In this document: one piece after another, positions 24,350 through 60,612 of the stretch
How the letters are laid out: each line of letters starts with the position of its first letter
How positions within the stretch are numbered: position 1 is the stretch's first letter
Assembly (NCBI GenBank): GCA_958295745.1
Contig: OY282370.1
Span: forward strand, 1,031,990 to 1,095,989
Source: an uncultured Acidimicrobiia bacterium
GTDB lineage: Bacteria; Actinomycetota; Acidimicrobiia; Spongiisociales; Spongiisociaceae
Reading direction: 5' to 3'
DNA: 64,000 nucleotides
The notes under the pieces: generated by a model
What the model saw: only the letters and a program-made list of their open reading frames with translations
Databases searched by the model: none
What the model was told of the DNA's origin: nothing
Translations under genes and position numbers: made by a program

Positions 24350-24360
24350 CCCCCCCCCCC
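24350..24360. repeat. homopolymeric C11/G11 tract
   Basis: Eleven consecutive C. Lies ~295 nt upstream of the family-5 SBP start, in the tcmP-SBP intergenic region. Confidence 0.9.
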
Positions 24361-24466
24361 GGCTTGCCGGTGTGGGCCCCTGCCCCGCACGGTAACAATA
24401 ACGTGTGTAACCTGCCGTCCGAAGCCTGGCCGGAGAAGGATAACAAGACCCCTCCCCTTCAGTCAT

Positions 24467-25510
24467 TTAAAGAGGCATAGCCAGCTGTGATCCGGGTTGT
24501 AGTTCGGTGATATCGGTAGACTCTCTCTCACATAAACTAGGACGAGATGGTGGCTCGTGTTCATAGAAATATTCATCAGACCGTACCGGGGCATATAGTT
24601 CTTCATCATCCAGATCAAGGAGAGGATTCTGCCCTCTGCTTTCGTATTCTATCTGCCTGCGTAGTCTTCGCGCCTCTGCTCTCATCTTCGGGAACTCCCT
24701 AGCGGCTTTAGCATAAATATCTCTCATAATGCGGTTGCCGGCCTCGTGATCGGTGGCGAAGATCATGTAATATATTATGGAGCCTGGTTCATTTAAGACT
24801 TCAATAGAGTGTGTCCATCGATATCCGAGGTTCTTCTCAAGTCTCCATCGCATTAGGTTTAGATATTCATCTCGCGCTTGAGACGGACTAATCTCTTTTC
24901 TGAGGCGCGCATGATAGATACAAAGCCAGTCTTCCGTACCGTACATTCGATCGATCTTTATAGCATTAACATCGCTAACTCTTGAACCATCATCAACTGG
25001 TAACGTTCTGATAAACATCGGTGCAGCAAATAATAAGAATAATTCGGCCTTCCATTTTCGTCCCTTTTTAAACTGTGCTAAAGCCTTAAGAGTCCGCCAT
25101 TCTGCTTGCATACCGCTGGGATCAACAAAGGCAAAGGTCGGAGCCCGGTTCCACTCCCTTAATATATTTAGCTCCGACGGAATTCGTTCATTACAGTCCC
25201 CACCGATTACCTTCAAATCTCTACCAGGATACTTTGCTAGAAGGGCCTTCTTAAGTCTTGGAGCTTTGTCCTCTTTTTCAAAGAATCTGAGCCGAGTAAA
25301 GGGGGGATCATCAATTGACAGAGCGATAGCCGCTGATCCCTTTAGTGACTCGCCTGTCAGTCTATCTATATTCTCTGGCTCACCTGCAAAAGCATCAATA
25401 TATATCCTCTCGAATGCCTTGTTCTTAGTCGCAGTTGTAAACGCGTCTAGGTAACGCTGCAGGATATCCAGTTTTCCTCTTGTCCAGTAACCCCAAGCAC
25501 GACCCGGCAT
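24467..25510 (-). CDS. tcmP: three-Cys-motif partner protein TcmP-like, with amino-methyltransferase-like DPPF motif
   Basis: ORF 24467..25642. Start placed at ATG 25510, 8 nt after the stop of the upstream DUF5131 gene. Markedly lower GC than the flanks. Contains ERIYIDAFAGEPEN and AIALSIDDPPF, which resembles motif IV of beta-class N6A/N4C DNA methyltransferases. The family name is recalled from memory and needs a profile search. Confidence 0.55.
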   Translation of the reverse strand: MPGRAWGYWTRGKLDILQRYLDAFTTATKNKAFERIYIDAFAGEPENIDRLTGESLKGSAAIALSIDDPPFTRLRFFEKEDKAPRLKKALLAKYPGRDLKVIGGDCNERIPSELNILREWNRAPTFAFVDPSGMQAEWRTLKALAQFKKGRKWKAELFLLFAAPMFIRTLPVDDGSRVSDVNAIKIDRMYGTEDWLCIYHARLRKEISPSQARDEYLNLMRWRLEKNLGYRWTHSIEVLNEPGSIIYYMIFATDHEAGNRIMRDIYAKAAREFPKMRAEARRLRRQIEYESRGQNPLLDLDDEELYAPVRSDEYFYEHEPPSRPSLCERESTDITELQPGSQLAMPL

Positions 25511-25518
25511 AACTATCT

Positions 25519-26268
25519 CTAAACCCCCTCCCTGAGTGCCGGCATCTCGTCGTGGAAGGCGCCGTCGAGTTCTCTTCCGCCAGCTTTGGGGGTGCGGCCG
25601 CCCCACTGCTTGAAGAAGAAGGCCACGCCCTCCGCCCGGCATCGGTCCCGGAGGCCGCGGACCCAGGCTTCGTTCATCGGTCTGGCGTTGTGGCCGCTCT
25701 CACCGCCTGCGATCAGCCATTGGATCGACGAGAGGTCCAAGCTCGGAAGCGGACCGAGCAGGGGTTCGGCGCTGACGAACCGCACCGCCGCTTTGACCTC
25801 GCGCAGGTGATCCACCCTGAAGGTGTAGCGGTCGTTCTCTACGCTCACGCCCATCCAGACGTTGGGAGGCCAGTCCAGGCAGGGCGCAAGCGAGGCGAGC
25901 CGCTTGGAGCGCTTGGTGAGTATCTGGTAGGTATGCCGGGGCGTATCGGCCATGACATCGAAGACACGCCGGATGAAGTCCAACGGCACCCCCGGATGGA
26001 ACAGATCGCTCATCGAGTCCACGAACACGAGCCGCCGCGACCTCCAACCGTAGGGCGCGGCCAACGTCTCCTCGTGCAGGGTCAGAGCGAAGCCCGGTCC
26101 GCTGGTCCTGGGATCCCCGTCGTTCTGGTACTTGGCCAGCCCCATCGCCTTGAGGCGCTTGGCGAGCGTGAGCGCGTAACAGTTGTCGCACCCGGCCGAG
26201 ACCCGATCACAGCCCGTGGTGGGATTCCACGTAGCGTCGGTCCACTCGATCCTCGACCCGTTGCTCAT
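25519..26268 (-). CDS. phage Gp37/Gp68-family (DUF5131) three-Cys-motif protein
   Basis: ORF 25519..26298, likely start MSNGSRIEWTDATWNPTTGCDRVSAGCDNCYA (Cx6CxxC) at 26268. Tightly coupled to the downstream tcmP-like gene. Confidence 0.6.
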   Translation of the reverse strand: MSNGSRIEWTDATWNPTTGCDRVSAGCDNCYALTLAKRLKAMGLAKYQNDGDPRTSGPGFALTLHEETLAAPYGWRSRRLVFVDSMSDLFHPGVPLDFIRRVFDVMADTPRHTYQILTKRSKRLASLAPCLDWPPNVWMGVSVENDRYTFRVDHLREVKAAVRFVSAEPLLGPLPSLDLSSIQWLIAGGESGHNARPMNEAWVRGLRDRCRAEGVAFFFKQWGGRTPKAGGRELDGAFHDEMPALREGV

Positions 26269-26435
26269 GGCCTCCTTCCCTTCGCCGCCAAGCCACATTC
26301 AATATAAAGGCCGGGTATGACATTTCAAGAACCGATCCTGTCTGCGGCGTCCTTCGAGGACGGCCCCCTCTACCTTCCAAGATTTTCGGGCCGGGAGGAG
26401 TGGGAAAAAAATCTCGCCGGGGCGGTACGACCCCC

Positions 26436-26465
26436 TTGACCTATGACACACCCTTCCTATATACT
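26436..26465 (+). promoter_or_regulatory. near-consensus sigma-A-type promoter inside repeat leader (TTGACC - 16/18 nt - TATATA/TATACT)
   Basis: Sequence is cccccTTGACCtatgacacacccttccTATATACTaactatcat. In this copy nothing coding follows. Confidence 0.5.
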
Positions 26466-26696
26466 AACTATCATAGAGCACTCGACAGGGGAAGCCGTAC
26501 AACAAGGGAGCGCAAGCCGACATGTCACAGCCCCTCGATACGGTTACAGACACAGACAACAAACATCACCGCAAAGTCCGCGGAACGCGGTGATCGAACA
26601 GCGAGTCCGGCCCGCAACCCCGCCGGGGGAACCGGGGACGGGCGAGCAACAAGCCAAAACCGAAAACCCAGACCGGGAACCGGGACAGGCCGCCGC

Positions 26697-26740
26697 GCCC
26701 GCCCCGCCCTGAGACCTTGGTGGTGGAGGCGGGGGCGGGC
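26697..26740 (+). other. GC-rich hairpin (gcccgcccc ... ggggcgggc, ~9-10 bp stem) within repeat
   Basis: Inverted repeat seen in both repeat copies (also ~31547-31590). Confidence 0.4.
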
Positions 26741-27057
26741 CCTGGGCGAAGCCCGAAACGCGCCCGAAAAGTCGCGAAAAACGGCGGGTAGCGGCGGCTG
26801 GCGGGGCGGGCGGGATATACAACCATGGGGCGGTCAGGGTTCACAACCGGCCTCTCACCGAGATGGTGGTCGCGAAGAACGGCGGGGCGGATCGAGGGTG
26901 GGTTCCTGGCCGGGGAGCGGGAAACCAAAACCAGAATCAGGCAACAAGAGGCAGACGCACCGTCACCCGTACCACCGCATCACCGGACTTGAGCACTTGA
27001 GCGACAGCCCTATACACGACCTCTAATCCACGGCGTCGCCTGCCGGAGATGGGCTGC

Positions 27058-29736
27058 TCAGGGGGTTGTGATGGTGTTGAGCGCTCGGACGAATAAGGAA
27101 GCCATCTGTGCTCTGGTTACCGGCTGGTCGGGGCAGTACCGGAGGGGGGCGGTGTCGCAGCCCAGGGTCACGCCCGCCCGGTGGAGGCCTTCTATTGCTC
27201 TGGCGGTGGATTCTTCCAAGCCGGCAACGTCGGAGAACAAACCCGTCGGCTGTTCGCCCGCCGCCAGGTTCGGGAAAGCCGCTACCAGCATCCGGGCCAT
27301 ATCGGCGCGGGTTACCACTCCGTCGGGGTTGAACACGCCGTCCACCGGCGGCATGATCCGGTTGGACGCCGCCCACCGGGCGTAGGCTTCGTACCAGGCC
27401 CCTGTCGGGACATCGGTCAGGGGCGCCGGATCGGTCGGAGCAGCAGGAACGGAACCGCCCTGCCGGTGGGTGATCGCCCGGTACAGGAACGCGGCCATCT
27501 GCCGTCTCGCGATCTGATCCTCGGGACAGAACCGGCGGGCTTCGCAACCGACGGTGACACCCCATTCGGCGATCCTCTCGATGTTCGGCTGATGAACGCT
27601 GCCGTCCTCGTCGCAGAACCTGCCCTGACACTCCGGAGCAGCGGACAGAGGGGGAGCAGCCGGCGGAGAAGCAGGATCAGCGGGCGGAGGAACAACAGGC
27701 GGCGGAGAAGGATCAGCGGGCGGCGGCGGAGAAGCAGCCGCGGGAGAGGCAGCCGGCGGAGAAGGATCACCGGACGGCGGCGGAGAAGCAGACGGCGGCG
27801 GAACAACAGGCGGCGGAGGATCCGACGGTGTGCGGTCGTTGTCGGTGATCGTCAACTCAGCGGGAGAAACGATAAACCCTTCAGCCGCGCCGGAGACCCT
27901 TACCGTCTCGGAACCCTCCGCGAAGCTGTCATCGACCACCGCCAAGTCGAAGGTATCCGTACCGCTCGATTGCCCCGCCGTGATCGTCACATCGAAATCG
28001 GCCACCTCGGTGAAATCCTCCACCACTGCGGTGACACCCGCGGCAACACCCGCCACCGACACTGTCACCGTCACGTCCTCCGCCGATGTCCCCGAACCGC
28101 CCCGGAACGCGGCGGTAACCGTCACCGCCCTTACCGGGTCCCCTTCGGCCACAACATCCGGGGACACACTCAAATCGATAAACGACGGGCGGCTGCACGC
28201 TTCGATCCGGCCGTGGTCGGCGACTTCCAGACGGGTGTCCAACTGAGACAACGAGCGGAGCTGGACGGGCAAAGCTCCGGAGAGATAGTTCTCACAGAAA
28301 TAGAACCAGTCCAACTTGCCTTTCCCTTGAGGCGGCGGGGCCAGCCTACCTAACTCAACAGGAATAGAACCCGTAAGACCATTACCATCGAGGAACAACC
28401 GCTTGAGGTTGGTCAAACCACCCAACTCAGCGGGAATAGAACCCGTAAGACCATTACCGTCGAGGACCAACCACTCAAGGTCGGTCAGGTTGCCCAACTC
28501 GGCAGGAATCGAACCCGTAAGATCATTATCATCAAGACGTAAACGTGTGAGGTCGGTCAGGTTGCCCAACTCGGCAGGGATAGACCCCGTAAGACCATTA
28601 CCCTTGAGATTCAACTCCCTGAGGTTGGTCAGGTTGCCCAACTCGGTAGGGATAGACCCCATAAGACCATTATCATTGAGATTCAACTTCAAGAGTCTGG
28701 TCAGGTTGCCCAGATCAGCGGGGATAGAACCCGTAAGACCATTACCATCGAGACCCAAATACTTGAGTTTGGTCAGCTTACCTAGCTCGGCGGGGATAGA
28801 ACTCGTAAGGCCATTACCATCGAGACCCAAATGTGTGAGGTTGGTCAAATCACCCAACTCGGCGGGGATAGAACCCGTAAGACCATTATTGAAAAGAGAC
28901 AAGTACCGGAGATCAGTCTTACCCAACTCAGCAGGAATCGAACCCGTAAGACCATTACTGGAAAGGCCCAAATCCCGGAGGCTGGTCAAATCACCCAGAT
29001 CAGCAGGAATAGAACCCGTAAGACCATTACTGGAAAGGTTCAAATCCCGGAGGTTGGTCAAATCACCCAACTCGGCAGGAATAGAACCCGTAAGACTATT
29101 ATACTTGAGATTCAAATCCACGAGGCTGGTCAAATCACCCAGATCAGCAGGAATAGAACCCGTAAGACTATTATTGGAAAGATACAAACCCCAGAGGTTG
29201 GTCAAATCACCCAACTCGGCAGGAATCGAACCCGTGAGACTATTCCTGGCGAGATCCAACCTCCCGAGGTTGGTCAAATCACCCAGATCAGCAGGAATAG
29301 AACCCGTAAGGCCATTATCGTCAAGAAGCAACTCATTGAGGTTGGTCAAATCACCCAACTCGGCAGGAATAGAGCCCTTGAGATCACTATCGGAAATATC
29401 AACATGGGTCACCCGTTTGGGAGTGGAGCCGACCGTGATACCGTCCCAAGTGGTGATGTCCCCACTCCAGGTGCGTAGTGGATGGTTGGAGCGCAAGCCT
29501 GCATTGAGGGCGTCGTTCGTCCAGTGGTTTCGTATAGCTACCAGGGTTTGGCAGTCAGAGACTAGGCCGGTGTTGGCGGCGGGATCGGCCACGTAGGTCC
29601 CGTCCGAACAGGAAGCCGGATCGAGGGGGGTGATCCCGGGGTCGGTCTGAGCCGCAACAGGCGCGCCCAGAGCGAGGCCCAAACCGCCAACCAGCAAAAC
29701 CACCTTGACCCTGAAAATCCACGACTTCTTGAACAT
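27058..29736 (-). CDS. secreted surface protein: ~16 plant-type leucine-rich repeats + Calx-beta-like domain + Pro-rich linker + two C-terminal SLH domains
   Basis: ORF 27058..29760 with duplicated start MFDKSRGA/MFKKS. Signal LLVGGLGLALGAPVAAQ. 24-aa LRRs of the form LxxLxxLxLxxNxLTGSIPAELGDLTNL. Calx-beta-like block is VVAEGDPVRAVTVTAAF...TFDLAVVDDSFAEGSETVRV. The PPPPVVPPPSASPPPS linker follows. SLH repeats end ...RQMAAFLYRAI and ...VTRAQMASLFVRAL. Confidence 0.75.
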   Translation of the reverse strand: MFKKSWIFRVKVVLLVGGLGLALGAPVAAQTDPGITPLDPASCSDGTYVADPAANTGLVSDCQTLVAIRNHWTNDALNAGLRSNHPLRTWSGDITTWDGITVGSTPKRVTHVDISDSDLKGSIPAELGDLTNLNELLLDDNGLTGSIPADLGDLTNLGRLDLARNSLTGSIPAELGDLTNLWGLYLSNNSLTGSIPADLGDLTSLVDLNLKYNSLTGSIPAELGDLTNLRDLNLSSNGLTGSIPADLGDLTSLRDLGLSSNGLTGSIPAELGKTDLRYLSLFNNGLTGSIPAELGDLTNLTHLGLDGNGLTSSIPAELGKLTKLKYLGLDGNGLTGSIPADLGNLTRLLKLNLNDNGLMGSIPTELGNLTNLRELNLKGNGLTGSIPAELGNLTDLTRLRLDDNDLTGSIPAELGNLTDLEWLVLDGNGLTGSIPAELGGLTNLKRLFLDGNGLTGSIPVELGRLAPPPQGKGKLDWFYFCENYLSGALPVQLRSLSQLDTRLEVADHGRIEACSRPSFIDLSVSPDVVAEGDPVRAVTVTAAFRGGSGTSAEDVTVTVSVAGVAAGVTAVVEDFTEVADFDVTITAGQSSGTDTFDLAVVDDSFAEGSETVRVSGAAEGFIVSPAELTITDNDRTPSDPPPPVVPPPSASPPPSGDPSPPAASPAAASPPPPADPSPPPVVPPPADPASPPAAPPLSAAPECQGRFCDEDGSVHQPNIERIAEWGVTVGCEARRFCPEDQIARRQMAAFLYRAITHRQGGSVPAAPTDPAPLTDVPTGAWYEAYARWAASNRIMPPVDGVFNPDGVVTRADMARMLVAAFPNLAAGEQPTGLFSDVAGLEESTARAIEGLHRAGVTLGCDTAPLRYCPDQPVTRAQMASLFVRALNTITTP

Positions 29737-29774
29737 GGCTCCCCGCGACTTGTCGAACATGGCTCCAAATACTA

Positions 29775-29785
29775 CCCCCCCCCCC
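29775..29785. repeat. homopolymeric C11/G11 tract
   Basis: Eleven consecutive C. Lies 15 nt upstream of the first ATG (29760) and 39 nt upstream of the second ATG (29736) of the LRR/SLH gene, i.e. in its RBS/5'UTR region on the coding strand (as G11). Confidence 0.9.
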
Positions 29786-30022
29786 GGGATTCCAAATCAA
29801 ATCCACCTGCGGGAAGGGCAGGCCGAAGGGTGGACCAAGTGGAGAAGCACCCCCTGACCTGGGATTGATCTGAGGTCCACCCAGGCCGGACATCCCGCCC
29901 TGGTTGAGACAGCAGCGCCTCGTCCGTCCAAGCGGGCGATGCGGTGATCGGCCTCGCAGTCACCGACCGCCGGGCCGGCCGACAGAGTGGGAAAAAAATC
30001 TCGCCGGGGCGGTACGACCCTC

Positions 30023-30052
30023 TTGGCCTATGTCGCACCTTTCCTATATACT
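30023..30052 (+). promoter_or_regulatory. sigma-A-type promoter (TTGGCC - N16/18 - TATATA/TATACT), -10 ending 7 nt before the ATG: predicted leaderless transcript
   Basis: Sequence is tcTTGGCCtatgtcgcacctttccTATATACTaactatcATGgag. No room for an RBS. Confidence 0.5.
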
Positions 30053-30059
30053 AACTATC

Positions 30060-31328: not shown

Positions 31329-31917
31329 ACAACCGGCCGGGAAGCCGTACAACAAGGGAGCGCAAGCCGACATGTCACAGCCCCTCGATACGGTTACAGA
31401 CACAGACAACAAACATCACCGCAAAGTCCGCGGAACGCGGTGATCGAACAGCGAGTCCGGCCCGCAACCCCGCCGGGGGAACCGGGGCCGGGCGAGCAAC
31501 AAGCCAAAACCGAAAACCCAGACCGGGAACCGGGACAGGCCGCCGCGCCCGCCCCGCCCTGAGACCTTGGTGGTGGAGGCGGGGGCGGGCCCTGGGCGAA
31601 GCCCGAAACGCGCCCGAAAAGTCGCGAAAAACGGCGGGATAGCGGCGGCTGGCGGGGGTCGGGATATACAACCATGGGGCAGTCGGGATAACGAGGGTGA
31701 GCGGGAAACACAACCGAGGGGCGAGCGGGATAACAAGGAGCGAGCGGGAAACACAACCATGGGGCGGGCGGGAAACACAACTGACTCTCTCGCCTAGACC
31801 GAGATGGGGATCGGTTGAGTCCAGGGTCGTGGTGTAACGGGGGCGTGGTGAACTGTACCGGGTTCGGTGCAGGTTGGGGTTGCTCGGGTGGGTTGGGAAG
31901 GGTTGGGGGACGTGCTG

Positions 31918-55900: not shown

Positions 55901-58900
55901 ACTATCGTCTCGACCCCCTCGTCCATCGAGCTGTCGTCCACCGCCGTGATGTCGACCCGGGCGGGGGTGACCCGTCTGGGGTTGCCTGTGTGGATGGTTA
56001 GCTGATCCCTGCCGGAGACGAAAGCGGTGGTGAAATCGGTCCCGGAAGTGGCGGTGCCGCCGGTGAAGGTGAAATCCCGCACCGTTACATTGCCGGTCGG
56101 GTGCTTCCCGGCGGGGAGGGTGCCGGACACCTCGAAGCAAACCTTCCCATCCCCCTCACTGATGTGGTCCGAGGCGGGTTGGGAGTCGGTTGGTTGGCAT
56201 TTGACGGCCCGGGCCGCCAGGTTGACGATCGCCGGGTCGTCGTCCTCGATCGTGAACAGCCCCTCGTTGATCGTATAGGGGGAGGTTTCCCCGAATCGCA
56301 GTCGTACCTTTGCGGTCTCCGGCCCTTCGATAAAAGGGTCGTTGAAGGGGATGACACCGATAGTGCCCGAACCCCGCACCTGGTTTTTAGGGATGGTCAC
56401 AGTCACATACGGCCCACCGGAGAAACTGAGGTCCCCCGGGTTGAATCCGATTGGGGTAGTGGCTGTAACCCCTACCACCCACAGACGGAGGGTGGTGTCG
56501 GAGTCCACCGCCCCGGAGGCGAACTCGGCGGTCACGGTCACGGTGGTGGTGCCTGCGTCCTCGGCGATGGAGGTCTGCTGCCCGGGGTCGGAGCTGGTGT
56601 CCACTTTCAGGTCGATGGTGGTGGGGGCGGGGTCGTTGTCGGTGATGGTGACCCGGGTGCTGACCGCCTGCCCGAACACCGAAGCCATGAACTGGACCTG
56701 TTCGGCGGACACCTCGTGTATGGAGTCGTCGGTGGGGGTGAGGGTGACCGTCTTGGAACCCTGTGTGGCCCCGGCCGCCACCGGCACCGTGAAGTCAGTG
56801 ATGTTCGCGAAGTCGGTTCCCGCCGTAGCCCCGACCCCGGTTACGGCGACGGCCACCCCGGTTTCCGAGGTCAGCTCGGAGGTGGCGGCGTGGGGGAATC
56901 GAACGGTGAGGGTGATGGAGGTCGGGCCGGCGTTCTCGTCCACCGAAGTCTTGTCGATCCTCAACTGGAACTGCGAATCCTGGTCCCGGATGGTGATCGA
57001 GGCCGGGTTGACGACGTATCCGCTCAGCGAAGAGGTCAGGGACACCGTCTCCAGCCCTTCCAGCGCCGTGTCGGAGGCGGCGGCGAAACTGATGGTGGCC
57101 GTACCGCTCCGCGAGTTGGCCGGGATGGTCACGTCCACCGTGGCCGGAGCGGTGAAATCGCCGGCTTCGGCGGTGTCGGCCGCGAGGGAAACCGTGAAGG
57201 TAGTCGACGATGTCAAGGCGGCCGCCCCGTTGGGAACGGAGGCTTTGACCGCCACCGTCCGGGTGTTGCCCTCCACCACGTAGTTCTGCTCCCCGGTGTC
57301 GGTCTGCGTATCCACGCTCAGGTTTACGGTGGGGACGGTGTCTGCGTCGTCGTCGATGATCACAAACGCCCCGTTGACGGTGTGCCCGGCCGCCGTGCCG
57401 GTAACAGCTATATCCTCGGGCCCTTCCACCAGATCGTCGGAGGCGGTGGTCAGGCTGAAGGTGGCGGACCCGCTGGCGGCGTTGGCGGGGATGGTCACGG
57501 TGAAGTCGTTGACCGCGGTGAAATCGTTGGCTTCCGCCCCGTAGGCGCCGGCGGACGCCGCCACCGACACGGTAACTGTGGTGGCTGACGATTTGGACGC
57601 CCTCTCCGCATAGGCGGCGGTTACCGTCACCGTCTGGTTGGCGGCCCCTTCCGCAACGCTGGGCTGGACGCCGACGAGGGGGTGCGCCGCGTCCACCATC
57701 AGGTTGATGCGGTTGGCCGAATAGTCGTGGTCGTGGAGCCGGATCGCGACGGGGCGCACCTTGAACCCGGCGTCGGCCTGCCCTTCGATAACGATCGTCT
57801 CGACCCCTTCGTTGACCGCCGTATCATCGAGCGCCGCGATGCTGACTAAGGCCGTCATATGTTGGGTTTCGGCCAATCTCTGGAATGTTATCTGATTCCG
57901 GGGTCCTGTCGATTGCTCAACGAACGCCCAGTTGTAATCGGTTCCCGAAGCGGCGGTCCCCCTGATAGTCAGGTTGCTGACCGTTACCGGCCCGGCGGTG
58001 CGGGTGCCATACGGCAAGGACCCGAGTATGCCGAAGCAGACGGAGCCAAAGCCCTCACCCTCATAGATGTCGTCATTGCCGTTGGCGTGAGTAATACACC
58101 TGATCGGACGCAGGTTGATTATCGCCTCTTCGTCGTCTTCGATGGTGAACTCCGCCGAGTTGACCGTGTAGGTGGAGGTCCCCCGGAGGGACACCGTGAC
58201 GGTCTTGGGCGCTTCGCCCGCTACGGCGTTGTTGTCGGGGGTGACGGTGACGGTGGCGGTTCCCCGCACCTGGCCCTGTGGGATGGTCAAAGAGAAGTTG
58301 GAGGTCGCCGCCCCTGACAGCTGCAGGTTCACGGCGGTGGCGGACTCCACCGCGGTCCCGGAGGCGAACTCGGCGGTCACGGTCACGGCGGTGGCGCCTG
58401 CGTCCTCGGCGATGGTGGTCTGCTGTCCGGAGTCGGAGCTGGTGTCAACGGACAGGTCGATGACGGTGGGGGCGGCGTCGTCGTCGGTGATGGTCACCGC
58501 CGCAGAAGCGGTGCGTCCGAACAGCGACCCGGTGAACTCGACCTGTTCGGTGGAGGTTTCAACGAGGACGTCGTCGGTGGGGGTAAGGGTTATCGACTTG
58601 GACCCGCTGACCGCCGCCGCCGCCACCGGCACCGTGAAATCGGCGATGTTCTCGAAGTCGGTTCCGGCGGTCGCCCCGACCCCGGTCACGGTTACCGACA
58701 CCTGGGTCTCCGCCGCCAGCTCCGAGGTGGCGGCGTTGGGGAACGACACGGTCAGGTCGACGGTTGTGGCGCCCGCGTCCTCGTTCACCGAAGACACGCT
58801 CGCCGCCAGCGTGAACCCGGCGTCCTCGTCCGCGATGGTGAGGGAGGCCGGGTTGACCGTGTAACCGGCCAAGGTGGAGGACAGGGACACCGTCTCCGGC

Positions 58901-60465
58901 CCCTCCAGTATCGTGTCGGAGGCGGCCGTGAAGCTGAAGGTGGCCGTACCGCTGGTCTGGCCTGAGGCGATGGTCACATCCACCGAAGCGGGGGCCGTGA
59001 AATCGGTGCTCTCGGCCGTGTCGGCCGCGATGGTGACCGTGAACACAGCCGCGGTGCTCAACGCCGCCTCCCCGTCCGGCAGCGCCGCTTTTACGGTGAC
59101 CGTCCTGGTGTCGCCCTCGTCCACGTGACTCTGCTCGCCCGAGTCGGTCTGGGAATCCACGCTCAGGTTTACGGTGACGGAGGCTTCCTGTTGGCCGGAG
59201 ACGATCCGGTCGCCGGGCGGCTCGGGCGGCGCGGTCACGGTCGGCTCTTCTATGGTCGGTTCGTTGTCGGTGATGGTTATCTCGGCGCCGGTGATGTCCC
59301 CGATGCCGGATGCGGCGGTGGTCCCGGAAATGTCCACCGTCTCGCCGCCTTCGGACACCTGGTCGTCGATGGCCTCCAGAGTGAACTCGGCCTGCCCGCT
59401 GGTCTGACCGGCGGGGATGGTCACCGCAAAGTCATCAACGGGGTTGAAGTCCTCCGCCCCGGCCTGCCCGATTCCCCCTTGGCCGACGACCGACACCGTG
59501 ACCTCCGTATCCGTCTCCAGAGCCTGCGACCCGTCCGGGAAAGCGGCGGTCACGACCACCCCCGCCGCCCGGCCTTCGGAGACCTCGGTCTGGGCGCCCT
59601 CGGCCTCGGAGTCGGTGTCCACACTCAAAGCGATGGAAATCGGGCCGGTCTCTTCCTCGTCCTCGGTTTCCTCGTCGCCTTCCTCGTCTCCTACACCTTC
59701 GTCGCCGTCACCGCCCCCTGAACCGTCACCCTCATCATCACCCTCACCCTGCCCATCATCGCCCTGCTCACCGCCCTCACCCTCATCGCCCTCACCCTCA
59801 TCACCATCACCCTGCCCATCATCGCCCTGCCCACCGCCATCACCCTCACCACCGTCGCCATCGCCCTGCCCATCATCACCCTGCTCATCACCATCACCCT
59901 CATCACCATCACCCTCATCGCCGACCGGCGGCCGGTTCTCGCCCTCAGGGACGGTTCCTTCGTTCGCGGGGACGGTGGTGGAGGTCGTCGTAGGAGGAAC
60001 GGGGACGGTGGTAGAGGTCGTCGTAGGAGGAACGGGGACGGTGGTAGAGGTCGTCGTAGGAGAAGCGGCGAGAGTGGTAGAGGTGGTCGTAGGAGAAGCG
60101 GGGACGGTGGTGGTAGTCGTCGCAGGAGAAGCGGCGAGAGTGGTAGAGGTGGTCGTAGGAGAAGCGGCGAGAGTGGTGGAGGTGGTCGTAGGAGAAGCGG
60201 GGACGGTGGTGGTAGTCGTCGCAGGAGGATCGGCGAGAGTGGTGGTAGTCGTCGCAGCGCTGGTCGTAGATGTCGACTCGGGCGAGGCCGGAGCAGAAGT
60301 GGCAGAAGACGACGAAGAGGGGACGGTGATCAGGACCTCGGACTGCGCCCCCACGGCAGCGACCATCAGAAAAGCGGTAACCCCCGCCGTCCCGGCCAAG
60401 AACCGCATACGACGGCCGAACCCGCTCATCACTCGGCCCCAACCCCAGAAAAAGCGACTAGGCAA
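31918..60465 (-). CDS. giant (9515 aa) secreted SLH-anchored surface protein with ~80 tandem Calx-beta-like domains, cadherin-like domain and three C-terminal SLH domains
   Basis: Single uninterrupted 28.5 kb ORF. N-terminal signal (alternative start MSGFGRRMRFLAGTAGVTAFLMVAAVGAQS at 60429). An 11-aa Thr/Pro tandem linker and a GDE-rich acidic low-complexity region follow. ~110-aa units LSVDxDS..DQTSxxEGVSxRxVTVTA...VTVGAGTAExxDYSxPSG.ETFDVxIAAG..S.S.TFTLxTxxDxVxxExDxLxxxG are repeated dozens of times. Near the C-terminus: PPPP linker, cadherin-like beta-sandwich (LRSLAIAPGVLSPVFASDTLSYATTVSN...), then three SLH repeats (...RWQMALFLYRAA, ...RADMALMLDAFL, ...TRAQMAQFIARML). Confidence 0.8.
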   Translation of the reverse strand: MPSRFFWGWGRVMSGFGRRMRFLAGTAGVTAFLMVAAVGAQSEVLITVPSSSSSATSAPASPESTSTTSAATTTTTLADPPATTTTTVPASPTTTSTTLAASPTTTSTTLAASPATTTTTVPASPTTTSTTLAASPTTTSTTVPVPPTTTSTTVPVPPTTTSTTVPANEGTVPEGENRPPVGDEGDGDEGDGDEQGDDGQGDGDGGEGDGGGQGDDGQGDGDEGEGDEGEGGEQGDDGQGEGDDEGDGSGGGDGDEGVGDEEGDEETEDEEETGPISIALSVDTDSEAEGAQTEVSEGRAAGVVVTAAFPDGSQALETDTEVTVSVVGQGGIGQAGAEDFNPVDDFAVTIPAGQTSGQAEFTLEAIDDQVSEGGETVDISGTTAASGIGDITGAEITITDNEPTIEEPTVTAPPEPPGDRIVSGQQEASVTVNLSVDSQTDSGEQSHVDEGDTRTVTVKAALPDGEAALSTAAVFTVTIAADTAESTDFTAPASVDVTIASGQTSGTATFSFTAASDTILEGPETVSLSSTLAGYTVNPASLTIADEDAGFTLAASVSSVNEDAGATTVDLTVSFPNAATSELAAETQVSVTVTGVGATAGTDFENIADFTVPVAAAAVSGSKSITLTPTDDVLVETSTEQVEFTGSLFGRTASAAVTITDDDAAPTVIDLSVDTSSDSGQQTTIAEDAGATAVTVTAEFASGTAVESATAVNLQLSGAATSNFSLTIPQGQVRGTATVTVTPDNNAVAGEAPKTVTVSLRGTSTYTVNSAEFTIEDDEEAIINLRPIRCITHANGNDDIYEGEGFGSVCFGILGSLPYGTRTAGPVTVSNLTIRGTAASGTDYNWAFVEQSTGPRNQITFQRLAETQHMTALVSIAALDDTAVNEGVETIVIEGQADAGFKVRPVAIRLHDHDYSANRINLMVDAAHPLVGVQPSVAEGAANQTVTVTAAYAERASKSSATTVTVSVAASAGAYGAEANDFTAVNDFTVTIPANAASGSATFSLTTASDDLVEGPEDIAVTGTAAGHTVNGAFVIIDDDADTVPTVNLSVDTQTDTGEQNYVVEGNTRTVAVKASVPNGAAALTSSTTFTVSLAADTAEAGDFTAPATVDVTIPANSRSGTATISFAAASDTALEGLETVSLTSSLSGYVVNPASITIRDQDSQFQLRIDKTSVDENAGPTSITLTVRFPHAATSELTSETGVAVAVTGVGATAGTDFANITDFTVPVAAGATQGSKTVTLTPTDDSIHEVSAEQVQFMASVFGQAVSTRVTITDNDPAPTTIDLKVDTSSDPGQQTSIAEDAGTTTVTVTAEFASGAVDSDTTLRLWVVGVTATTPIGFNPGDLSFSGGPYVTVTIPKNQVRGSGTIGVIPFNDPFIEGPETAKVRLRFGETSPYTINEGLFTIEDDDPAIVNLAARAVKCQPTDSQPASDHISEGDGKVCFEVSGTLPAGKHPTGNVTVRDFTFTGGTATSGTDFTTAFVSGRDQLTIHTGNPRRVTPARVDITAVDDSSMDEGVETIVIEGRGADGYTVRSVAVLLADNDLSPNRIDLKVDTNSVLAGYQPSIGEGVDDQTVTVTASYADNVSRTSSTAITVSVAGAGGTRGAEANDFTAVSDFTVTIPANAASGSATFSLTTADDERVEGAEDLAVSGTASGFTVNGAMVTIDDDDAPPAIVLSVDADDAASGVQSSVGEASAAKTARVTASVPGGTTFESAVAVTVSVDGAGGTGEAEAADFAAVADFTVTIPAGQSSGSATFSLDPTEDVSVEGAEDITVSGTSAAVGVRVISTSIEITDNDDPPAAALSVDLDSGTPGDQDTIGEGDAAVTATVTAALPAGSKTFESDVTISVTVSGEGTTGKAESSDFSTDKTNNTFDMTIPAGGRSSSETFTLTITDDEVLDITPETITLSGAADFSGMTVTADSITIDSDNDTGHPTIALSVDTDNAAAGVQSSVNEGAVKTVKVTAAFPAGAKTLETATVVSVLVSTAGTVEANDFSTDKTNDTFDITIPAGARSGSATFTLTTVDDNLVGEGIETVILSGTTTAPGFTTPASASFTIPDADDNTLVVISQDVEPSSTETFEDEVREGGGPYEGVRVRLAIPYTGLQKVFESEATFTVQVTDAGLATAEADDFSTDKTDNSFDITFPAGSYRAEGTFKLTITDDALYERDEEIRLTGTTDTPGVRVFRSEITIIDNEARPAISMTIDTDLEVFGDQDYIPEGITSRKVKVTASVAEGSAERESDTVVTVSHVPVTAASPADYSFTHWGDIPYGGNRTNITIPAGADQASKYFKVSTVDDNTSGEGAETFQIAGFSPWYVDNGVGAITPAVVTIDDSDNPSTIYLRVDTSSTQPGVQKAVSEPSQTRVLVTTSLPNGAPGLSANQTVTVSVVGGGGSGQAEASDFSAVSSFDMTIARGDDMVSRNFTLFVTDDTVVDVLPEVLTVSGSSSGYTVRNDFIVIEEDNDTTTVNLSVDTDSTTPSNQNTAAEGTDATVTVSAALTGTAALEEDLELTVSVAGAGGSGQAGPDDFDAVTDFTLTVSKTSRTGSATFDLSGTDDNVADEGTEKISVTGATSYAGVTVNGAEISITDGDQAPTVIVLSVDADDAATGDQSSVTEGAAASTARVTASFPNGSAVLPTKTTVRVSVAGEGGTGQAETADFTAVNSFDVEIPAGQSSGSATFGLATAEDDYAEGAETITVSGVASGYTVNSGSVTIDDNDAAPTGFTLSVDADTSATGAQTSLGEASAAKTAQVTASLPDDSKTFESATVITVSVSGDGGTGQAEAADFTAVSDLTITIPAGQSSGSATFTLDPIEDDYAEGDEDITVSGTADRTGITITGATVEITDNDTAPTTVALSVDLDSDTTGDQDTIGEGDAAAAVTVTADLPADSKTFESATAITVTVSGEGTAGKAESSDFSTDKTNDSFTVSLAAGATTGSATFTLTIADDNVVDLVSETITVSGTTDRSGLAVTGDTITIDSDNDTGPTTISLGVDTSTDTGIQTAVTEAADAHPITVTAAYPDGSNVYEKVIAVTLSATGVTASAGDFTFAATSLANPSLILNIPSSQASVSDSSGFLLTAVDDNTVEPAETLTIGGTATGFTVSGVTATIDDNDPAPTTIDLSVDTDSGTVGDQTNVMEGGSATTVTVKATLAGSSVLTSDTVVTVSVAGEGTTGKAEAADFTAVTSFDVTISAGQSSGAGTFTLTLTDDDLAEGNESLTVSGVTTASGFSTVNSASVNIVDNDVTPTTITLTINPTSVSEGGGATTVDVTAAFPAGSPTFETATSVSVSVSGGTATSGTDYAAVTSFTVSIAAGETSGMGTFTFTPTEDTVAGEGNETINVSGTAAGFTFTNAVLSIADNDVKPSSIVLTVDADGDTTGDQTSVTEASGSTTVSVKVAFPANSPSLASATDVTVKLVGEPARSGEADETTLVLGQAKGKVMHTTGFDYSTNKTNDTFTITIPAGQTSQTGDFTLTVVDDTQSEGPETFKVAGTSTGFTFNAAPEMTITDNETTDISLFFSDGDGNRRPADSPFDDAEHLKEGVHEDTTLPLWGGVAPPTLPFNIYLTLGTAVGQQYLDITIRTSGTAVEGILTDTSRDYDLQWRHGPSTVFSREALPNNVFRIGRGHTRYNEGGEELSPTQSIFVYDDNIAEGDETITFTGHSIQGVSNSISVTLKDNDIAPTVINLAVDTDTSTTATSETKLMEGDSSTTVKITASFPVGSAVLPTPTAVAVSLMDNTATSRDHLAVPSFNVIIPALATSGSTEFTLTLVDDDIVEDPEILDVGGTLAGFTVNPAMITIADNETISLSLDTDGATTGAQTSVDEGVTDQTVTVTASFDAASSVLTGATVVTVSAADGSTNPASAPDDYTAVSDFTITIPAGDISASATFDLTTAADNIALEGSETLSVSGTATGYTVTNTTMSITDGTTVPSLAFTVDADTSTPGVQTSVGEGVSGRSVEVTASLSGSNVLARDLTIPVTVGRGTAETTDYSVTGGSFNLTISAGQSTSNTETFTLNTVDDSVTGETDALSVGGTATLAGVTFSGSTPLTINDDDAATVGLSVDTDSGETGDQTSLEEGVSGRSVSVTATVSGSLTVEAATTVAVTVGAGTAESSDYSIPSGQESFDVVIAAGTGSDSETFALTTKTDTVVGEADVLAVSGATAGFTVNGASLTITETGTIGLSVDADGGTSGDQTSLAEGISGRTVTVTATVAGGGTVEAETTVAVTVGAGTAEATDYSIPSGEDTFDVTIAAGASSGSATFTLNTDDDSVVAETDVLAITGTTTAAGITVSSASLTIDDSDTGTVTLSVDADSGTPGDQTSIDEGVSGRSVTVKAKVGGSLTVEAETTVAVTVGAGTAEGSDYSIPSGQDTFGVVISAGGSSGSNTFALTTNTDSVAGESDVLSITGSTTAAGLTVSSASLQIGETVTIDLSVDTDGNTPGSQTSLAEGVSGRTVTVTAAVAGGGTMEAETSVSVSVGAGTAEGSDYSIPSGQESFMVTISAGASSGSATFSLTTETDSVISEVDALAVSGTAAGFTVSGASLAITGTGTIGLSVDADGGTSGDQTSLGEGVSGRTVTVTAAAATGVTVEAETTVAVTVGAGTAEGSDYSIPSGQDTFDVVIAAGGSSGSNTFTLNTRDDTVVAETDVLSVTGTTTAAGVTVSSASLTIDDSDTGTVGLSVSPTSLAEGLSNQTVTVKATLAGLTVEAETTVAVSVGAGTAEGSDYSIPSGQETFDVVIAAGGSSGSNTFTLTANSDSVISEVDALAVSGSVAGFTVNPASLTITETGTIGLSVDASSDSGVQTSLGEGVSARTVTVTASVAGGGTAETETTVAVTVGAGTAEAGDYSIPSGEDTFDVTIAAGASSGSATFTLNTVDDDVVNEADALEITGTTTTTGITVNKTSLTISDDDTAVIDLSVSPASLDEGVSGRSVSVTATVAGSLKVEDAITVAVTVGAGTAEASDYSIPSGQESFDVTIAASTGSKSGSFTLSTVDDSVAGESDVLAIGGVSGSLTVNGASLTITDGDSAPAIGLSVSPASLGEGVANRSVSVTATLAGSTTMETDTTVAVTVGAGTAEASDYSIPAGQETFDVTISAGSPSGSNTFTLTTKSDSVISEVDALAISGSVSGFTVNGASLAIADTGTIGLSVDADGGTSGAQTSVGEDVSGRTVTVTAAVSGGGTVEAETSVSVSVGAGTAEASDYSITAGEETFNVVIAAGTGSKSGTFTLNTVDDDVVGEADALTITGSTTTAGVSVGSASLTISDDDAAVIDLSVDADSGETGDQTSIEEGVSGRSVTVKATVAGSLTVEAATTVSVSVGAGTAESGDYSIPSGQEAFTVEIAAGTGVKSGTFALTTNSDSQAGEADALSITGTASGFTVNGASLQIGETVNIGLSVDADSGTVGDQASLGEGVSNRTVTVTAATAGGVAMETETTVSVTVGAGTAESGDYSIPDGEETFDVTIAAGASSGSGTFTLTTNSDSVISEVDALAVSGSAAGFTVGGASLTITDTGTIGLSVSPTSLGEGVANRSVSVTAAVSGGGTVEAETTVSVSVGAGTAEASDYSIPSGQESFNVVIAAGTGSKSGTFTLNTVDDSVAGEADALEITGSTTTAGVSVTKTSLTITDGDSAPAIGLSVSPTSLGEGVSNRSVSVTATLAGSTTMETDTTVAVTVGAGTAESGDYSIPSGQESFDVTIAAGDRSSSGSDTFTLTTNSDSVISEVDALAVSGTATGFTVNPASLAITDSGTIGLSVDASSASGVQTTIGEGVSNRSVTVTATVAGGGTAETETTVAVTVGAGTAESSDYSITAGEETFDVTIAAGASSGSATFTLNTADDSVVNEADALEITGVSGSLTVNKTSLTISDDDTAVIDLSVSPTSVDEGEANRAVSVTATLAGSLTVEDSITVAVTVGAGTAEASDYSIPSGQDSFDVTIAASAGSGSFTLSTVDDSVAGESDVLAISGVSGSLTVNGASLTINDGDSAPAIGLSVSPASLGEGVSNRSVTVTATLAGSTTMETDTTVAVSVGAGTAEASDYSITAGEETFDVTIAAGSSSGSDTFTLTTKSDSVISEVDALAISGSVSGFTVNGASLAIIDTGTVGLSVDADSASGVQTTIGEGVSGRSVTVTATVAGGGTAETETTVAVTVGAGTAEADDYSITAGEETFDVVIAAGSSSGSNTFTLSTEDDDVVNESDVLAIGGVSGSLTVNGASLTISDDDAAVIDLSVDADSGTPGDQTSIGEGVLGRSVGVTATVSGSLTVEAATTVSVSVGAGTAEADDYSIPAGDESFDVTIAAGTGGKSGTFSLTTNVDSLAGEADALSITGTASGFTVNGASLQIGETVNIALSVDTDSGTVGDQASLGEGVSNRTVTVTATVAGGAAEAEITVSVTVGAGTAESGDYSIPSGQETFDVTIAAGASSGSGTFTLTTNSDTVISEVDALTVSGTASGFTVGGASLTITGTGTIGLSVSPTSLGEGVSDQSVSVTAAAAGGGTVETETTVSVTVGAGTAESGDYSIPSGQESFDVTIAAGTGSKAGTFSLTTNSDSVAGESDVLAISGVSGSLTVNGASLTITDGDSAPAIGLSVSPTSVDEGEANRSVTVTATLAGSTTMETDTTVAVTVGAGTAESGDYSIPSSQETFDVVISAGSSSGSNTFTLTTNTDSVISEVDALAISGTATGFTVNGASLTIADTGTIGLSVDADSASGTQTTIGEDVSNRTVTVTATVAGGGTAETETTVRVSVGAGTAESEDYSIPSGQETFDVTIAAGASSGSGTFTLNTLDDSVVNEADVLAISGVSGSLTVNGASLTISDDDAAVIGLSVDADSASGVQTSLGEGVSGRSVSVTATVAGSLMVENAVTVAVTVGAGTAETGDYSIPSGQETFDVTIAAGTDSKSGTFTLNTVDDTVVAEVDALAVSGTATGFTVNGASLTISDDDAAVIGLSVSPTSLGEDVSGRSVSVTATVAGSLTVEADTTVAVTVGAGTAETGDYSIPSGQETFDVTIAAGDGSSSGSDTFTLTTNSDSVISEVDALAISGSVAGFTVNGASLTIADTGTIGLSVDADSASGAQTSIGEGVSNRTVTVTAAVAGGGTAETETTVSVSVGAGTAEAEDYSIPSGQESFDVTIAAGASSGSATFTLNTQDDDVVNEADALEITGTTTTTGVSVGSATLTISDDDTAVIDLSVDADSGTPGPQTSIGEGVLGRSVEVTATVADSLTVEAAITVAVTVEAGTAEADDYSIQPGQDSFDLAIAAGTNSKSGSFTLSTVDDSVAGESDVLAIGGVSGSLTVNGASLTIDDEDTADTVDLSVDKGSVVEGRSETVTVTATLGGPLVLESTALSVPVVIQDGSTDGSADYSATPSSFNVAIAAGQESGTSSFTLVAESDSVNGENEAVVVAGGVLAGYTINSAAVSITDTSTNTVSRGSPVTVDLVVDADPAAGRQTSLAEGITNREVTVTAAVNGGGTLDADTVIAVSVGAGTAEASDYSIPAGEETFDVTIAAGSSSGSGTFTITTYTDSVTAEVDALSITGTTTASGFTINSASLTIDDSGTVDLSVDADGSKPGDQTSVDEGVTNRSVTVTATVTGGDTVEANTTITVSVGAGTAESEDYSIPSGQESFDVTIAAGGTSGSGTFPLSTTDDKVLAETDALSISGSSSLSGLTIGSVSLGIDDSDKTIGLSVDSGETGDQTSIGEGVSNRSVTVTASVPGGGTAEAETTVSVTVGAGTAESSDYSIPAGEESFDVTIAAGAPSGSATFTLTTNTDTVISEVDALSITGAVAGFTVNGASLTISDSGTVDLSVDADSASGVQTTIGEGVSNRSVTVTATVAGGGTAETETTVTVSVGRGTAEASDYSIPVGEESFDLVIAAGGSTKAGTFTLNTLDDDVVAETDALSISGTTTAAGITVGQASLTLSDSDAATIDLSVDVDSGAPGDQDRMAEGISNRTVTVTATVAGSLTVEAGTTVSVSVGAGTAEADDYSIPAGEETFDLVIAAGTGSKSGTFTLTTNTDSVISENDALNISGTASGFTVNGKSLTIVDSNTVDLSVDADSTTDGAQDSIGEGISGRTVTVTAAVPGGGTVESETTVSVSVGAGTAEASDYSIPAGDETFDVVIAAGESSGTGTFELTTNTDSVVAETDVLSITGNAMGFDVTEASLMITDSGTVDLSVDADGGTSGDQTSIGEGISGRTVTVKATVPGPATVEADTTISVSVGADTAESSDYSIPDGEETFDVVIAAGESSSESGTFTLNTLNDDVVAETDALSISGTTTAPGLTINSASLTIDDSDTAAIDLSADADSTTAEVETSIDEGETNQTVKVTATVAGSLTVEAETTVAVSVGAGTAEVGDYSIPSGQETFDVVIAAGTRSKSGTFPITTITDTVVAEADALEITGTATGFTVNEASLTITDTGTITLSVDADSTTAEVENTIGEGENNTVRVTASVSGGGTVESDTTISVSVGAGSAESSDYSIPAGDESFDVTIAADAGSKSGTFTLNTVDDTVAGETDVLSISGTTTADGLTVSPASLEITDSDSTIDLSVDADSSTDEDQTSLGEGVSGRTVTVTAKVSGGGTVESNTTVRVSVGAGTAEGSDYSIPSGQETFDVVIAAGDGSNSATFTLTTYTDNMVAEADALQITGTATGFTVNEASLTIIGGGTIDLSVDADSGTSGDQTSIDEGVSNRTVTVTATAPMGGVVEAETSVSVSVGAGTAQAEDYSIPVGGETFDVVIAEGGSSGSGTFMLSTTDDNVADETEALQITGSITAAAEVTVNPTSLTITDGDARPTKINLSSDDSEVSEGTIETITITAAFPDNKVLTEPVTVLVEVTAEGSTQATDYTANPTNFTIVIPAGENSKQESFTLTAKDDDIAGENDKVKVTGTAAEFTFNDPLLVNIKDTDPDPNAILLSADRSSVNEGDSAQTVTVTASFGNGPKWAANTMVQIQVADGTAMSSDYQVDKSTFTVTINKESQQAAGTFKLTASQDSETERDESIRIAGTDVGGKFEVRDASVTIKDVTTQEPPPPPTEDPPSPPDPPDPPSPPDPPGPPPPPEPPGPPPPEDPKKPQEEASTDASLRSLAIAPGVLSPVFASDTLSYATTVSNRVWTVQVRAVPNHPKATVRIGGKIATGSHNVSVGTGEATISLLVTAEDKITTRTYQVAVGRGTGPGFADDLPAMTACVGQALRRYGFQDVAGWFSEQDINCIGYYGITLGRTPTRYAPEEIVPRWQMALFLYRAAIPAGITLPAPQDQGFVDIANRSERDREAMNMVAQLGIMPGRGDKFDPHGEISRADMALMLDAFLGLVTVGEGGVARDSVEPDPTLFEDVGDLSEREQLAIRRIFEMGVTRGSSAVAFKPAAKVTRAQMAQFIARMLSHTIARPIGVSIQADPSSLQGGQVDVVVSVRAEGFAPVRSARVDLFTAADQDAAFADDGTCASGRVSKTGPGTQACMIDSSDPVTDTNGDLRSSTAYRRGTTVWAWQDALNTTLDDTTIRAKLTL
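32130..32900 (-). other. three SLH domains of the giant protein (approximate coordinates)
   Basis: SLH consensus segments in the C-terminal ~260 aa of the translated product. Confidence 0.55.
34100..48300. repeat. array of ~40 near-identical ~330-360 bp tandem repeats (Calx-beta-like domain units) inside the giant gene
   Basis: Periodic antisense shadow ORFs every ~330-360 bp on the + strand (35048, 35456, 36260, ... 47525) with near-identical translations. Visually recurring blocks include gtcaacgacgccccgttcaccgtcaacgaacccgacacaccg and gaatcgaataatc. Confidence 0.8.
59968..60265. repeat. 33-bp tandem repeat x ~9 (encodes 11-aa Thr/Pro-rich units, e.g. LAASPTTTSTT) near the 5' end of the giant gene
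   Basis: Units ggggacggtggtRgaggtcgtcgtaggagRaRc / ggcgagagtggtagaggtggtcgtaggagaagc alternate. Confidence 0.8.
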
Positions 60466-60601
60466 TCACTGGTATGTGACGACCTAGCCGCATCCGTTCG
60501 GCGACTAACCGATCCGCGACAACACAACTTCCGACATCGGCACCACAGAGACGAGAGCGCCGCCCCTAACGCTCCGGTCCGTCTAACCGGCAAAACTGCA
60601 A

Positions 60602-60612
60602 CCCCCCCCCCC
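60602..60612. repeat. homopolymeric C11/G11 tract
   Basis: Eleven consecutive C, ~140 nt upstream of the giant gene start, in the whiB/giant-gene divergent intergenic region. Confidence 0.9.

Follow-up and report, generated by a model that had tools for sequence, protein, structure and literature searches.

Strain-variable poly-G tracts 5' of envelope-protein genes in an uncultured sponge-associated Acidimicrobiia bacterium, with candidate site-specific effects

Promoter-spacer switches built from a single repeated base are known from Bordetella pertussis, with poly-C at fim2 and fim3, and from Neisseria meningitidis, with poly-G at porA and poly-C at opc; in these systems, slippage by a single base alters the length of the spacer and the strength of the promoter. 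In phasevarions, the phase-variable genes are those of restriction-modification (R-M) systems, i.e. mod and hsd genes of Types I and III carrying simple repeats. Pernitzsch et al. are said to have shown in 2014 that a variable G-repeat in the 5' untranslated region (5'UTR) of Helicobacter pylori tlpB is targeted by a small RNA, RepG. Here, we describe three G/C homopolymers in a 64,000-nt stretch of contig OY282370.1 (the whole of which is hereafter called the window), and we compare them with such systems. As the preliminary description of this DNA had proposed, the tracts lie 5' of genes encoding envelope proteins, namely a family-5 solute-binding lipoprotein (SBP; site 1), an LRR-SLH protein (site 2), and a giant cadherin-like/SLH protein (site 3). 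The window was placed in Candidatus Spongiisociaceae (Acidimicrobiia, Actinomycetota) by a protein-guided scan of GTDB genomes.

The mechanism at issue, slipped-strand mispairing, is already known, including in Actinomycetota, where the preliminary description had considered it little described. In Cutibacterium (Propionibacterium) acnes, 54 polymorphic homopolymeric tracts (HPTs) were reported, 96% of them G/C, and were assigned to the same three classes as found here: intragenic frameshift, promoter/UTR, and rearrangement 'scars' (Scholz et al. 2016, PMC4746626). One of them, HPT_37, separates the -35 element from the -10 element in a leaderless gene (PMC4746626). Moreover, actinobacterial NucS leaves 1-2 nt indels unrepaired, which is consistent with homopolymer phase variation in mycobacteria, and this gap permits frameshift switching, e.g. 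at the 7C tract of glpK (PMC11551767). A literature search on phase variation in sponge symbionts or Spongiisociaceae yielded nothing relevant.

The three tracts were observed at positions 24350-24360 (site 1), 29775-29785 (site 2), and 60602-60612 (site 3), in exact agreement with the coordinates given previously. No other homopolymer in the window exceeded 8 nt. All three tracts were non-coding and read C11 on the + strand; the downstream gene is in each case encoded on the - strand, where the tract reads G11. Site 1 was found 107 nt past the tcmP stop codon and 298 nt before the ATG of the SBP gene, and site 2 at 14 nt from ATG 29760 and 38 nt from ATG 29736 of the LRR-SLH gene (15-39 nt in the preliminary description); given its distance, site 1 is not "immediately upstream" of its gene. 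Site 3, previously placed ~140 nt upstream of its gene, was 172 nt from the likely start codon, ATG 60429, and 136 nt from the outermost TTG.

Such long homopolymers are indeed rare. The numbers of C+G runs in the window, for lengths of 1 to 11 nt, were 17264, 7845, 1689, 558, 257, 36, 3, 1, 0, 0, and 3, respectively. This spectrum fell ~4.4-fold per extra base, and its log-linear extrapolation gave an expected 0.02 runs of at least 11 nt in the window against the 3 observed; naive models (independent and identically distributed bases, or first-order Markov) gave 0.46-0.7. Moreover, no G/C run of at least 9 nt was detected in 746 kb of sequence from 80 unrelated metagenome contigs; these were products of a DUF5131 metagenome scan, i.e. 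distant relatives (≤73% identity), used solely as a control. On the basis of the extrapolated spectrum and the empty background, the tracts are a class of their own, as opposed to the upper end of a distribution. The GC content of the window was 65.3%, lower than the 68% reported earlier.

Tract length was compared between the window and two groups of relatives: two complete chromosomes of metagenome-assembled genomes, L001 (OZ251535.1) and L002 (OZ241842.1), with ~82% nucleotide identity to the window across the SBP/ABC operon; and contigs of sister strains, 95-98.5% identical to the window, from ENA assembly ERZ19489113, the ptg… contig names of which suggest assembly with hifiasm. The sister-strain contigs were s77 (2.2 Mb; regions L084 and L086), s5321 (40 kb; L085), and s6722 (35 kb; L087). 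The strains in which orthologous tracts were present had 96-98% identity to the window. Site 2 was G11 in the window and G12 in L084, with 2 substitutions only in the ~200 flanking nucleotides. Site 3 was C11 in the window and in L086, and C10 in L087, and the 157 nt from the tract through its promoter were identical in all three strains. The site 1 orthologue in L085 was an interrupted run (CGGGGGGAGGG, G6AG3), 2 nt shorter, and the whole segment was missing from strain s77 (L084), in which other filler genes were present. Across ~54 kb of strain alignments, a pure length change was observed in 2 of the 4 runs of 11 nt, versus ≤4% of shorter runs (6 out of 498 for 4-nt, 8 out of 225 for 5-nt, 1 out of 24 for 6-nt, and 0 out of 6 for 7-nt runs). 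Overall, the tracts exist, are non-random, sit at the positions described, and change length between strains. The equal length of 11 nt, pointed out in the preliminary description, carries no weight because orthologous and related tracts measured 10, 11, 12, 13, 14, or 15 nt.

Related tracts were found in a Type ISP R-M gene of the sister species (L001:594-5500, L091:1-4900, and L092:1932-6900, the latter two being Illumina metagenome scaffolds). The enzyme exhibited Mrr_cat, helicase, coupler, and N6_Mtase domains, and its match to Type_ISP_C (342 profile positions) broke off at position 144, where a poly-G tract lies. Three poly-G tracts were present in the gene: two were orthologous, with lengths of 14/15/13 and 15/12/13 nt in L001/L091/L092, respectively; the third, at the end of the Type_ISP_C match, was 10 nt long in L001 and 14 nt in both L091 and L092, with unalignable flanks in L001. 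In addition, the Type ISP open reading frame (ORF) of L092 is divided into parts of 565 and 969 aa by a frameshift that coincides exactly with a G10 (L092:3534-3543); the orthologous position in L001 holds G5. All tracts of at least 9 nt in the window and family loci were G/C, and they fell into three classes: 5' intergenic (the three window sites), intragenic in the R-M gene (L001, L091, and L092), and at a junction or 3' end (dnaB of L001 and a NACHT gene of L092).

Past the Type_ISP_C match, we also observed ~six tandem modules of ~40 aa ('AIL..PSN..F.AL...DL....Q.R..PR'), distributed over all three frames, three of which were preceded by a G10-G15 tract and a small hairpin (GACGCGG..CCGCGTC). 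The module array was common to Type ISP alleles whose main bodies were only 49% identical. To our knowledge, no equivalent of this C-terminal array has been described.

At site 2, tract length may bear on the spacing of a promoter. The LRR-SLH gene (27058..29760, - strand) encodes a secreted protein of 900 aa composed of LRRs, a Calx-like region, a Pro-rich linker, and SLH domains; LRR and SLH were matched by Pfam, and a signal peptide was visible in the translation. Upstream of this gene, the - strand reads, in order, TTGATT/TTGGAA, TCCC, G11, TAGTAT, TTGGAGCC, and ATG. Two overlapping -35-like hexamers, TTGATT (29800-29795) and TTGGAA (29795-29790), can be read from the sequence, as can a -10-like TAGTAT (TAnnnT; 29769..29774, - strand), which ends 8 nt before ATG 29760 in a leaderless-like geometry. 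With n as the tract length, TTGGAA and TAGTAT are 4+n nt apart, and G11, G12, and G13 give spacers of 15, 16, and 17 nt, respectively; the distance from TTGATT to TAGTAT is 9+n nt, and this hexamer would be within range only at n = 7-9. At n = 10-11, neither putative -35 is in range. The neighbouring HNH gene has a promoter called by the promoter scan, TTGGCC-18-TATACT, that ends 7 nt before its ATG, and from this geometry the organism appears to use canonical -35/-10 promoters together with leaderless starts. Because the G-tract fills the gap between TTGGAA and TAGTAT, its length would set the spacing of the putative promoter, and a change in length would probably act as volume or ON/OFF control of a leaderless-type LRR-SLH transcript. 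We regard the case for such a promoter-spacer switch at site 2 as evenly balanced.

Two other roles for this tract were rejected. An ORF of L084 does span the tract, but the signal peptide would be buried in an intragenic arrangement; and the HNH gene, divergent on the + strand, has its own promoter 238 nt away from the C11.

The LRR part of the gene (window 28200-29400) had a GC content of ~47-55%, compared to 65% for the genome. The best homologue, with 89% aa identity across 72% of the query, is encoded at L083:10001-12778, on a contig of 50% GC belonging to the sponge assembly that also contains the sister strains. The low GC of the LRR part and this homologue on a co-resident contig suggest recent transfer of a eukaryote-like LRR module between unrelated symbionts. 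The same 50% GC contig has two large Calx-beta protein genes with homopolymers inside their 5' parts, a C10 (L083:18531-18540) and a G9 (L083:3030-3038), which may be intragenic switches in another symbiont.

Site 3 differs in its position relative to the promoter. The giant gene (31918..60429, - strand) encodes a secreted repeat protein of ~9,500 aa with a C-terminal cadherin-like domain and an SLH cell-wall anchor. Upstream, a near-consensus sigma-70-type promoter, TTGACA-18-TACAAT, was detected at 60725..60754 on the - strand (11/12 match; 0.0 expected in shuffles). From this promoter match, the transcription start site is predicted near 60718, and the G11 would lie at ~+107 of a ~290-nt 5'UTR. 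An upstream ORF of 15 codons (MEEEGAWTGMCTVFR, then a stop codon; 60618..60665, - strand), conserved in both sister strains, has its stop 5 nt before the G11. Because the tract is downstream of the promoter, in the predicted 5'UTR, any effect would have to follow initiation, via mRNA structure, a pairing partner, or polarity. That site 3 modulates the giant adhesin gene from within this 5'UTR is a tentative proposal, somewhat less probable than spacer control at site 2.

In the predicted fold of the 5'UTR, the G-run forms a hairpin loop, and folding at tract lengths of 8-14 nt gave no clear length-dependent rearrangement for lengths of 8-12. An accessible loop of this kind, insensitive to tract length, is what would be expected if the tracts were length-independent structural or recognition elements acting as a constitutive signal, such as a two-tetrad G-quadruplex (or i-motif on the C strand), a protein site, or a site for a C/U-rich small RNA. 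G11 is just long enough for a two-tetrad G-quadruplex, and the three window tracts share both length and strand. Against this explanation, lengths ranged from 10 to 15 nt among orthologues and relatives, and site 1 tolerates an interruption in L085. Moreover, no motif common to the flanks of the three window tracts and the relatives' tracts was found, an Rfam scan of the window gave no matches, and no RNA or protein partner emerged, no search aimed at such a small RNA having been made. We consider a constitutive element of this type quite improbable. A scan of GTDB genomes for the tract-flank pattern and a tRNA scan of the window also gave no matches.

Several additional features were noted around the giant gene. 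Its orthologue in s77 was intact, with a different number of N-terminal repeats; the apparent split of the gene in L086 was a gene-caller error, the signal-peptide frame being intact. The N-terminal low-complexity region (window 59600-60330; L086:8100-8900; also in L087) consisted of TTTTST-type and GDGDE-type repeats in strain-variable number, and repeat number is a second, in-frame source of variation in the giant protein. A C8 run (G8 on the coding strand) at 49548-49555, inside the giant ORF, was the longest intragenic homopolymer in the window. A role of the site 3 C11 for the divergent whiB gene on the + strand was rejected, with the whiB start ~440 nt away. Between the divergent promoter and whiB, a terminator-like hairpin (CCCCTC-TGAG-CAGGGG followed by TTTT; 60781-60803, + strand) was observed, with no obvious + strand gene upstream of it.

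A number of observations weigh against reading the tracts as switches. At site 3, a simple ON/OFF effect is not evident because the tract lies in the predicted 5'UTR, outside both the promoter and the coding frame. At site 2, the hexamers match 8/12 consensus positions, which is one match below the threshold of the promoter scan even at G12, and the scan called no promoter at G11 or G12. Furthermore, no tract of at least 9 nt was present upstream of the LRR-SLH homologues of more distantly related sponge Acidimicrobiia, over 57 kb in total. Site 1, finally, is remote from the SBP start codon (298 nt), outside the conserved upstream block, and interrupted in L085.

For these three reasons, site 1 is unlikely to be an SBP switch. 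The SBP gene (22150..24051, - strand; lipobox LVAAAC) is the first of an ABC peptide-transporter operon. Its upstream block conserved with the sister species, which includes a TATATT -10 candidate ~60 nt before the start codon, ends at ~24123-24150, and the tract lies 200 nt beyond, in window-specific DNA. Upstream of the tract is a DUF5131 + TcmP pair (24467..26298, - strand), classified by PADLOC as candidate defence system PDC-M41; tcmP matched TIGR04474 and had a GC content of ~45%, and DUF5131 is a mobile defence-candidate gene. The site 1 tract is probably a by-product at the edge of the swapped-in tcmP segment, and a function as an expression switch is improbable.

The slot between DUF5131 and the SBP gene varied in content: tcmP in the window (24151-25536), an IrrE/HTH gene in L001 (7703-9533), and GMT-wHTH with a 553-aa ORF in s77 (L084:6830-9630). 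In addition, an in-frame G9, born by substitution, was observed in the Gly linker after the SBP lipobox of L085 (2749-2757), where the window has GGGGGAGGGG.

The quality of the length differences also has to be considered. At site 3, both of the best assemblies have 11 nt, and the sole variant comes from L087, a contig with several 1-nt homopolymer indels within the giant ORF; because of these many other indels, the C10 of L087 is weak evidence. More generally, a 1-nt difference in a long G/C run falls within the consensus error of long reads. As long G/C homopolymers are error-prone on every platform, the tracts themselves might be sequencing or assembly artefacts. Nevertheless, they recur at orthologous positions in four independent contigs, and the window contains no 9- or 10-nt runs, as an error smear would give. 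Furthermore, related tracts were present in both the long-read chromosomes and the Illumina metagenome scaffolds, which is cross-platform evidence that the poly-G tracts of the family are real and variable. An artefact is thus the least probable of the explanations considered, to the point of being negligible.

Some of the family tracts are located where a regulatory function is implausible. In L001, synteny with the window breaks off exactly at a C10 that codes for the final prolines of DnaB; and in L092, a G11 occupies a 3'/3' intergenic spot beside a NACHT-gene insertion, at which L001 has GGGCGGGGG and L091 has G5. These tracts would fit neutral mutation, in which unrepaired small indels expand G-rich non-coding DNA, especially where it is recently rearranged or acquired, and the resulting tracts regulate nothing. 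Birth of a tract from an interrupted G-run was seen twice, at the NACHT junction and at site 1 (compare the L085 sequence with the window G11), and the lack of a tract upstream of the more distant LRR-SLH homologues points the same way. Moreover, for C. acnes, the authors concluded that changes accumulated slowly along clades and did not reflect active switching, and they described 'scar' tracts (PMC4746626). Several points are not readily explained by indel bias: all three window tracts lie 5' of envelope-protein genes, although the window is ~85-90% coding; at site 2, promoter-like hexamers bracket the tract precisely, with the ATG 14 nt from it; and 7 of the 10 distinct tract loci of at least 9 nt in the family sample are upstream of surface-protein genes or in an R-M gene. 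Even if site 2 arose neutrally, a change in its length should alter promoter spacing. We consider neutral indel bias to be the main rival explanation, unlikely on balance and still to be taken seriously.

A further explanation takes the tracts to be scars or hot spots of cassette exchange, which would mark or promote illegitimate recombination. The window tracts belong to an island of surface and defence genes that varies between strains: the 35-kb block between whiB/mscS and DUF5131 was absent from L002 and replaced by other cargo in other strains; in L001-like strains, the same slot contained the Type ISP R-M enzyme and other defence-type genes. In favour of this explanation are also the C10 of L001 and the G11 of L092, right at synteny breakpoints, and the rearrangement class of HPTs in C. 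acnes (PMC4746626). However, breakpoints of the window relative to the sister genomes were located 200-450 nt from the tracts, and sites 2 and 3 were kept within otherwise collinear strains. The LRR-SLH segment is flanked not by tracts but by direct repeats at window positions 26398-26847 versus 29985-30067 and 31339-31696: the two copies of an 83-nt unit share 93% identity, and those of a unit of at least 300 nt are 100% identical. The tracts were accordingly rejected as insertion junctions in the window, and exchange scars are a very improbable explanation overall.

In the first copy of these repeats, the 83-nt and ≥300-nt units are adjacent; in the second, they are separated by ~1.27 kb containing the body of the HNH gene. 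Since the repeats are adjacent in one copy and split in the other, the HNH gene seems to have inserted into a landing pad that is duplicated. Downstream of the HNH gene, GCGGGAWAYACAACCATGGGGCGG-like units of 42-43 nt were found in tandem (31652-31781), with one copy at the other repeat (26803-26847), and in s77 an IS110-family element (Transposase_20; L084:4298-5597) was inserted at window position 26724/26725.

Taken together, we hold it slightly more probable than not that the three sites are genuine hypermutable G/C tracts with site-specific effects, i.e. spacer control at site 2, a post-initiation effect at site 3, and a by-product at site 1. The tracts would gain and lose G by slipped-strand mispairing, and, judging from the phylum, the symbiont would lack MutSL and the resulting indels would escape correction by the actinobacterial NucS pathway. 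Of the earlier proposal of slipped-strand switches in promoter or 5'UTR regions, we keep tracts that are real, non-random, and length-variable between strains at two of the three sites, and the promoter-spacer-like placement of site 2; the length-variable tracts of the Type ISP R-M gene, which is a classic type of contingency locus, also speak for it. Site 3 fits it in part, in a predicted 5'UTR where neither promoter nor frame is touched and a simple ON/OFF switch is not apparent; site 1, outside the conserved promoter-proximal block, is unlikely to be a switch.

Eukaryote-like repeat proteins and large adhesins are believed to help sponge symbionts escape ingestion by host cells and hold their niche. 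On a wider and rather doubtful reading, poly-G contingency tracts would be a lineage-wide strategy of Spongiisociaceae, in which single cells within the sponge mesohyl stochastically vary the display of the eukaryote-like LRR wall protein and the 9,500-aa adhesin, evading host phagocytes or phages, and multi-tract Type ISP genes switch C-terminal modules. If so, no contingency-locus system would have been described earlier either in Acidimicrobiia or in an obligate-type symbiont of a marine invertebrate. Hypermutable tracts just 5' of such genes would offer a testable, sequence-readable marker of heterogeneity within populations, in the form of tract-length spectra from existing metagenome reads, and would carry contingency-locus biology beyond pathogens, to a mutualist of a basal animal and to the class Acidimicrobiia. 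New here are the lineage (uncultured, sponge-associated Acidimicrobiia), the class of genes (an SLH-anchored eukaryote-like LRR protein and a giant adhesin), and evidence drawn from a comparison of co-occurring strains. On the practical side, the tracts mislead gene callers: two adjoining genes were mis-called in the public annotations of the sister strains, including the giant gene of L086.

Compared with the promoter-spacer switches of Bordetella and Neisseria, site 2 has the same arrangement, in which the -35 and -10 of a surface-protein gene are separated by a G/C run. It differs in that its -35 and -10 are putative and sub-threshold (8/12), its transcript looks leaderless, and the phylum presumably operates without MutSL. 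Site 3 resembles H. pylori tlpB, with a G run within the 5'UTR and well upstream of the start codon; tlpB has RepG as a small-RNA partner. The 5'UTR of site 3 is predicted solely from the promoter match. The Type ISP gene of the sister species shares with phasevarion R-M genes a tract length that varies among strains, including a G10 at a frameshift. Unlike in phasevarions, the enzyme is of Type ISP, the loci belong to relatives and not to the window, and the tracts precede ~six alternative C-terminal modules in different frames.

Mycobacteria and the window organism share an actinobacterial setting in which 1-2 nt homopolymer indels would escape mismatch repair; the mycobacterial examples are short, intragenic runs, in contrast to the long, non-coding tracts of the window. 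The HPTs of C. acnes have transcriptome and Sanger validation, and the tracts described here are known from assembled sequence alone. They are longer than those of C. acnes (10-15 nt versus mostly 5-13 nt), occur in an uncultured sponge symbiont of the class Acidimicrobiia, and are associated with an SLH-anchored giant adhesin, a eukaryote-like LRR protein, and a Type ISP enzyme. Like the window organism, C. acnes is a high-GC actinobacterium whose tracts are almost all G/C, mostly intergenic, and 5' of genes; the three HPT classes of C. acnes are also those of the window and family loci, and the layout of HPT_37 is exactly the one modelled for site 2.

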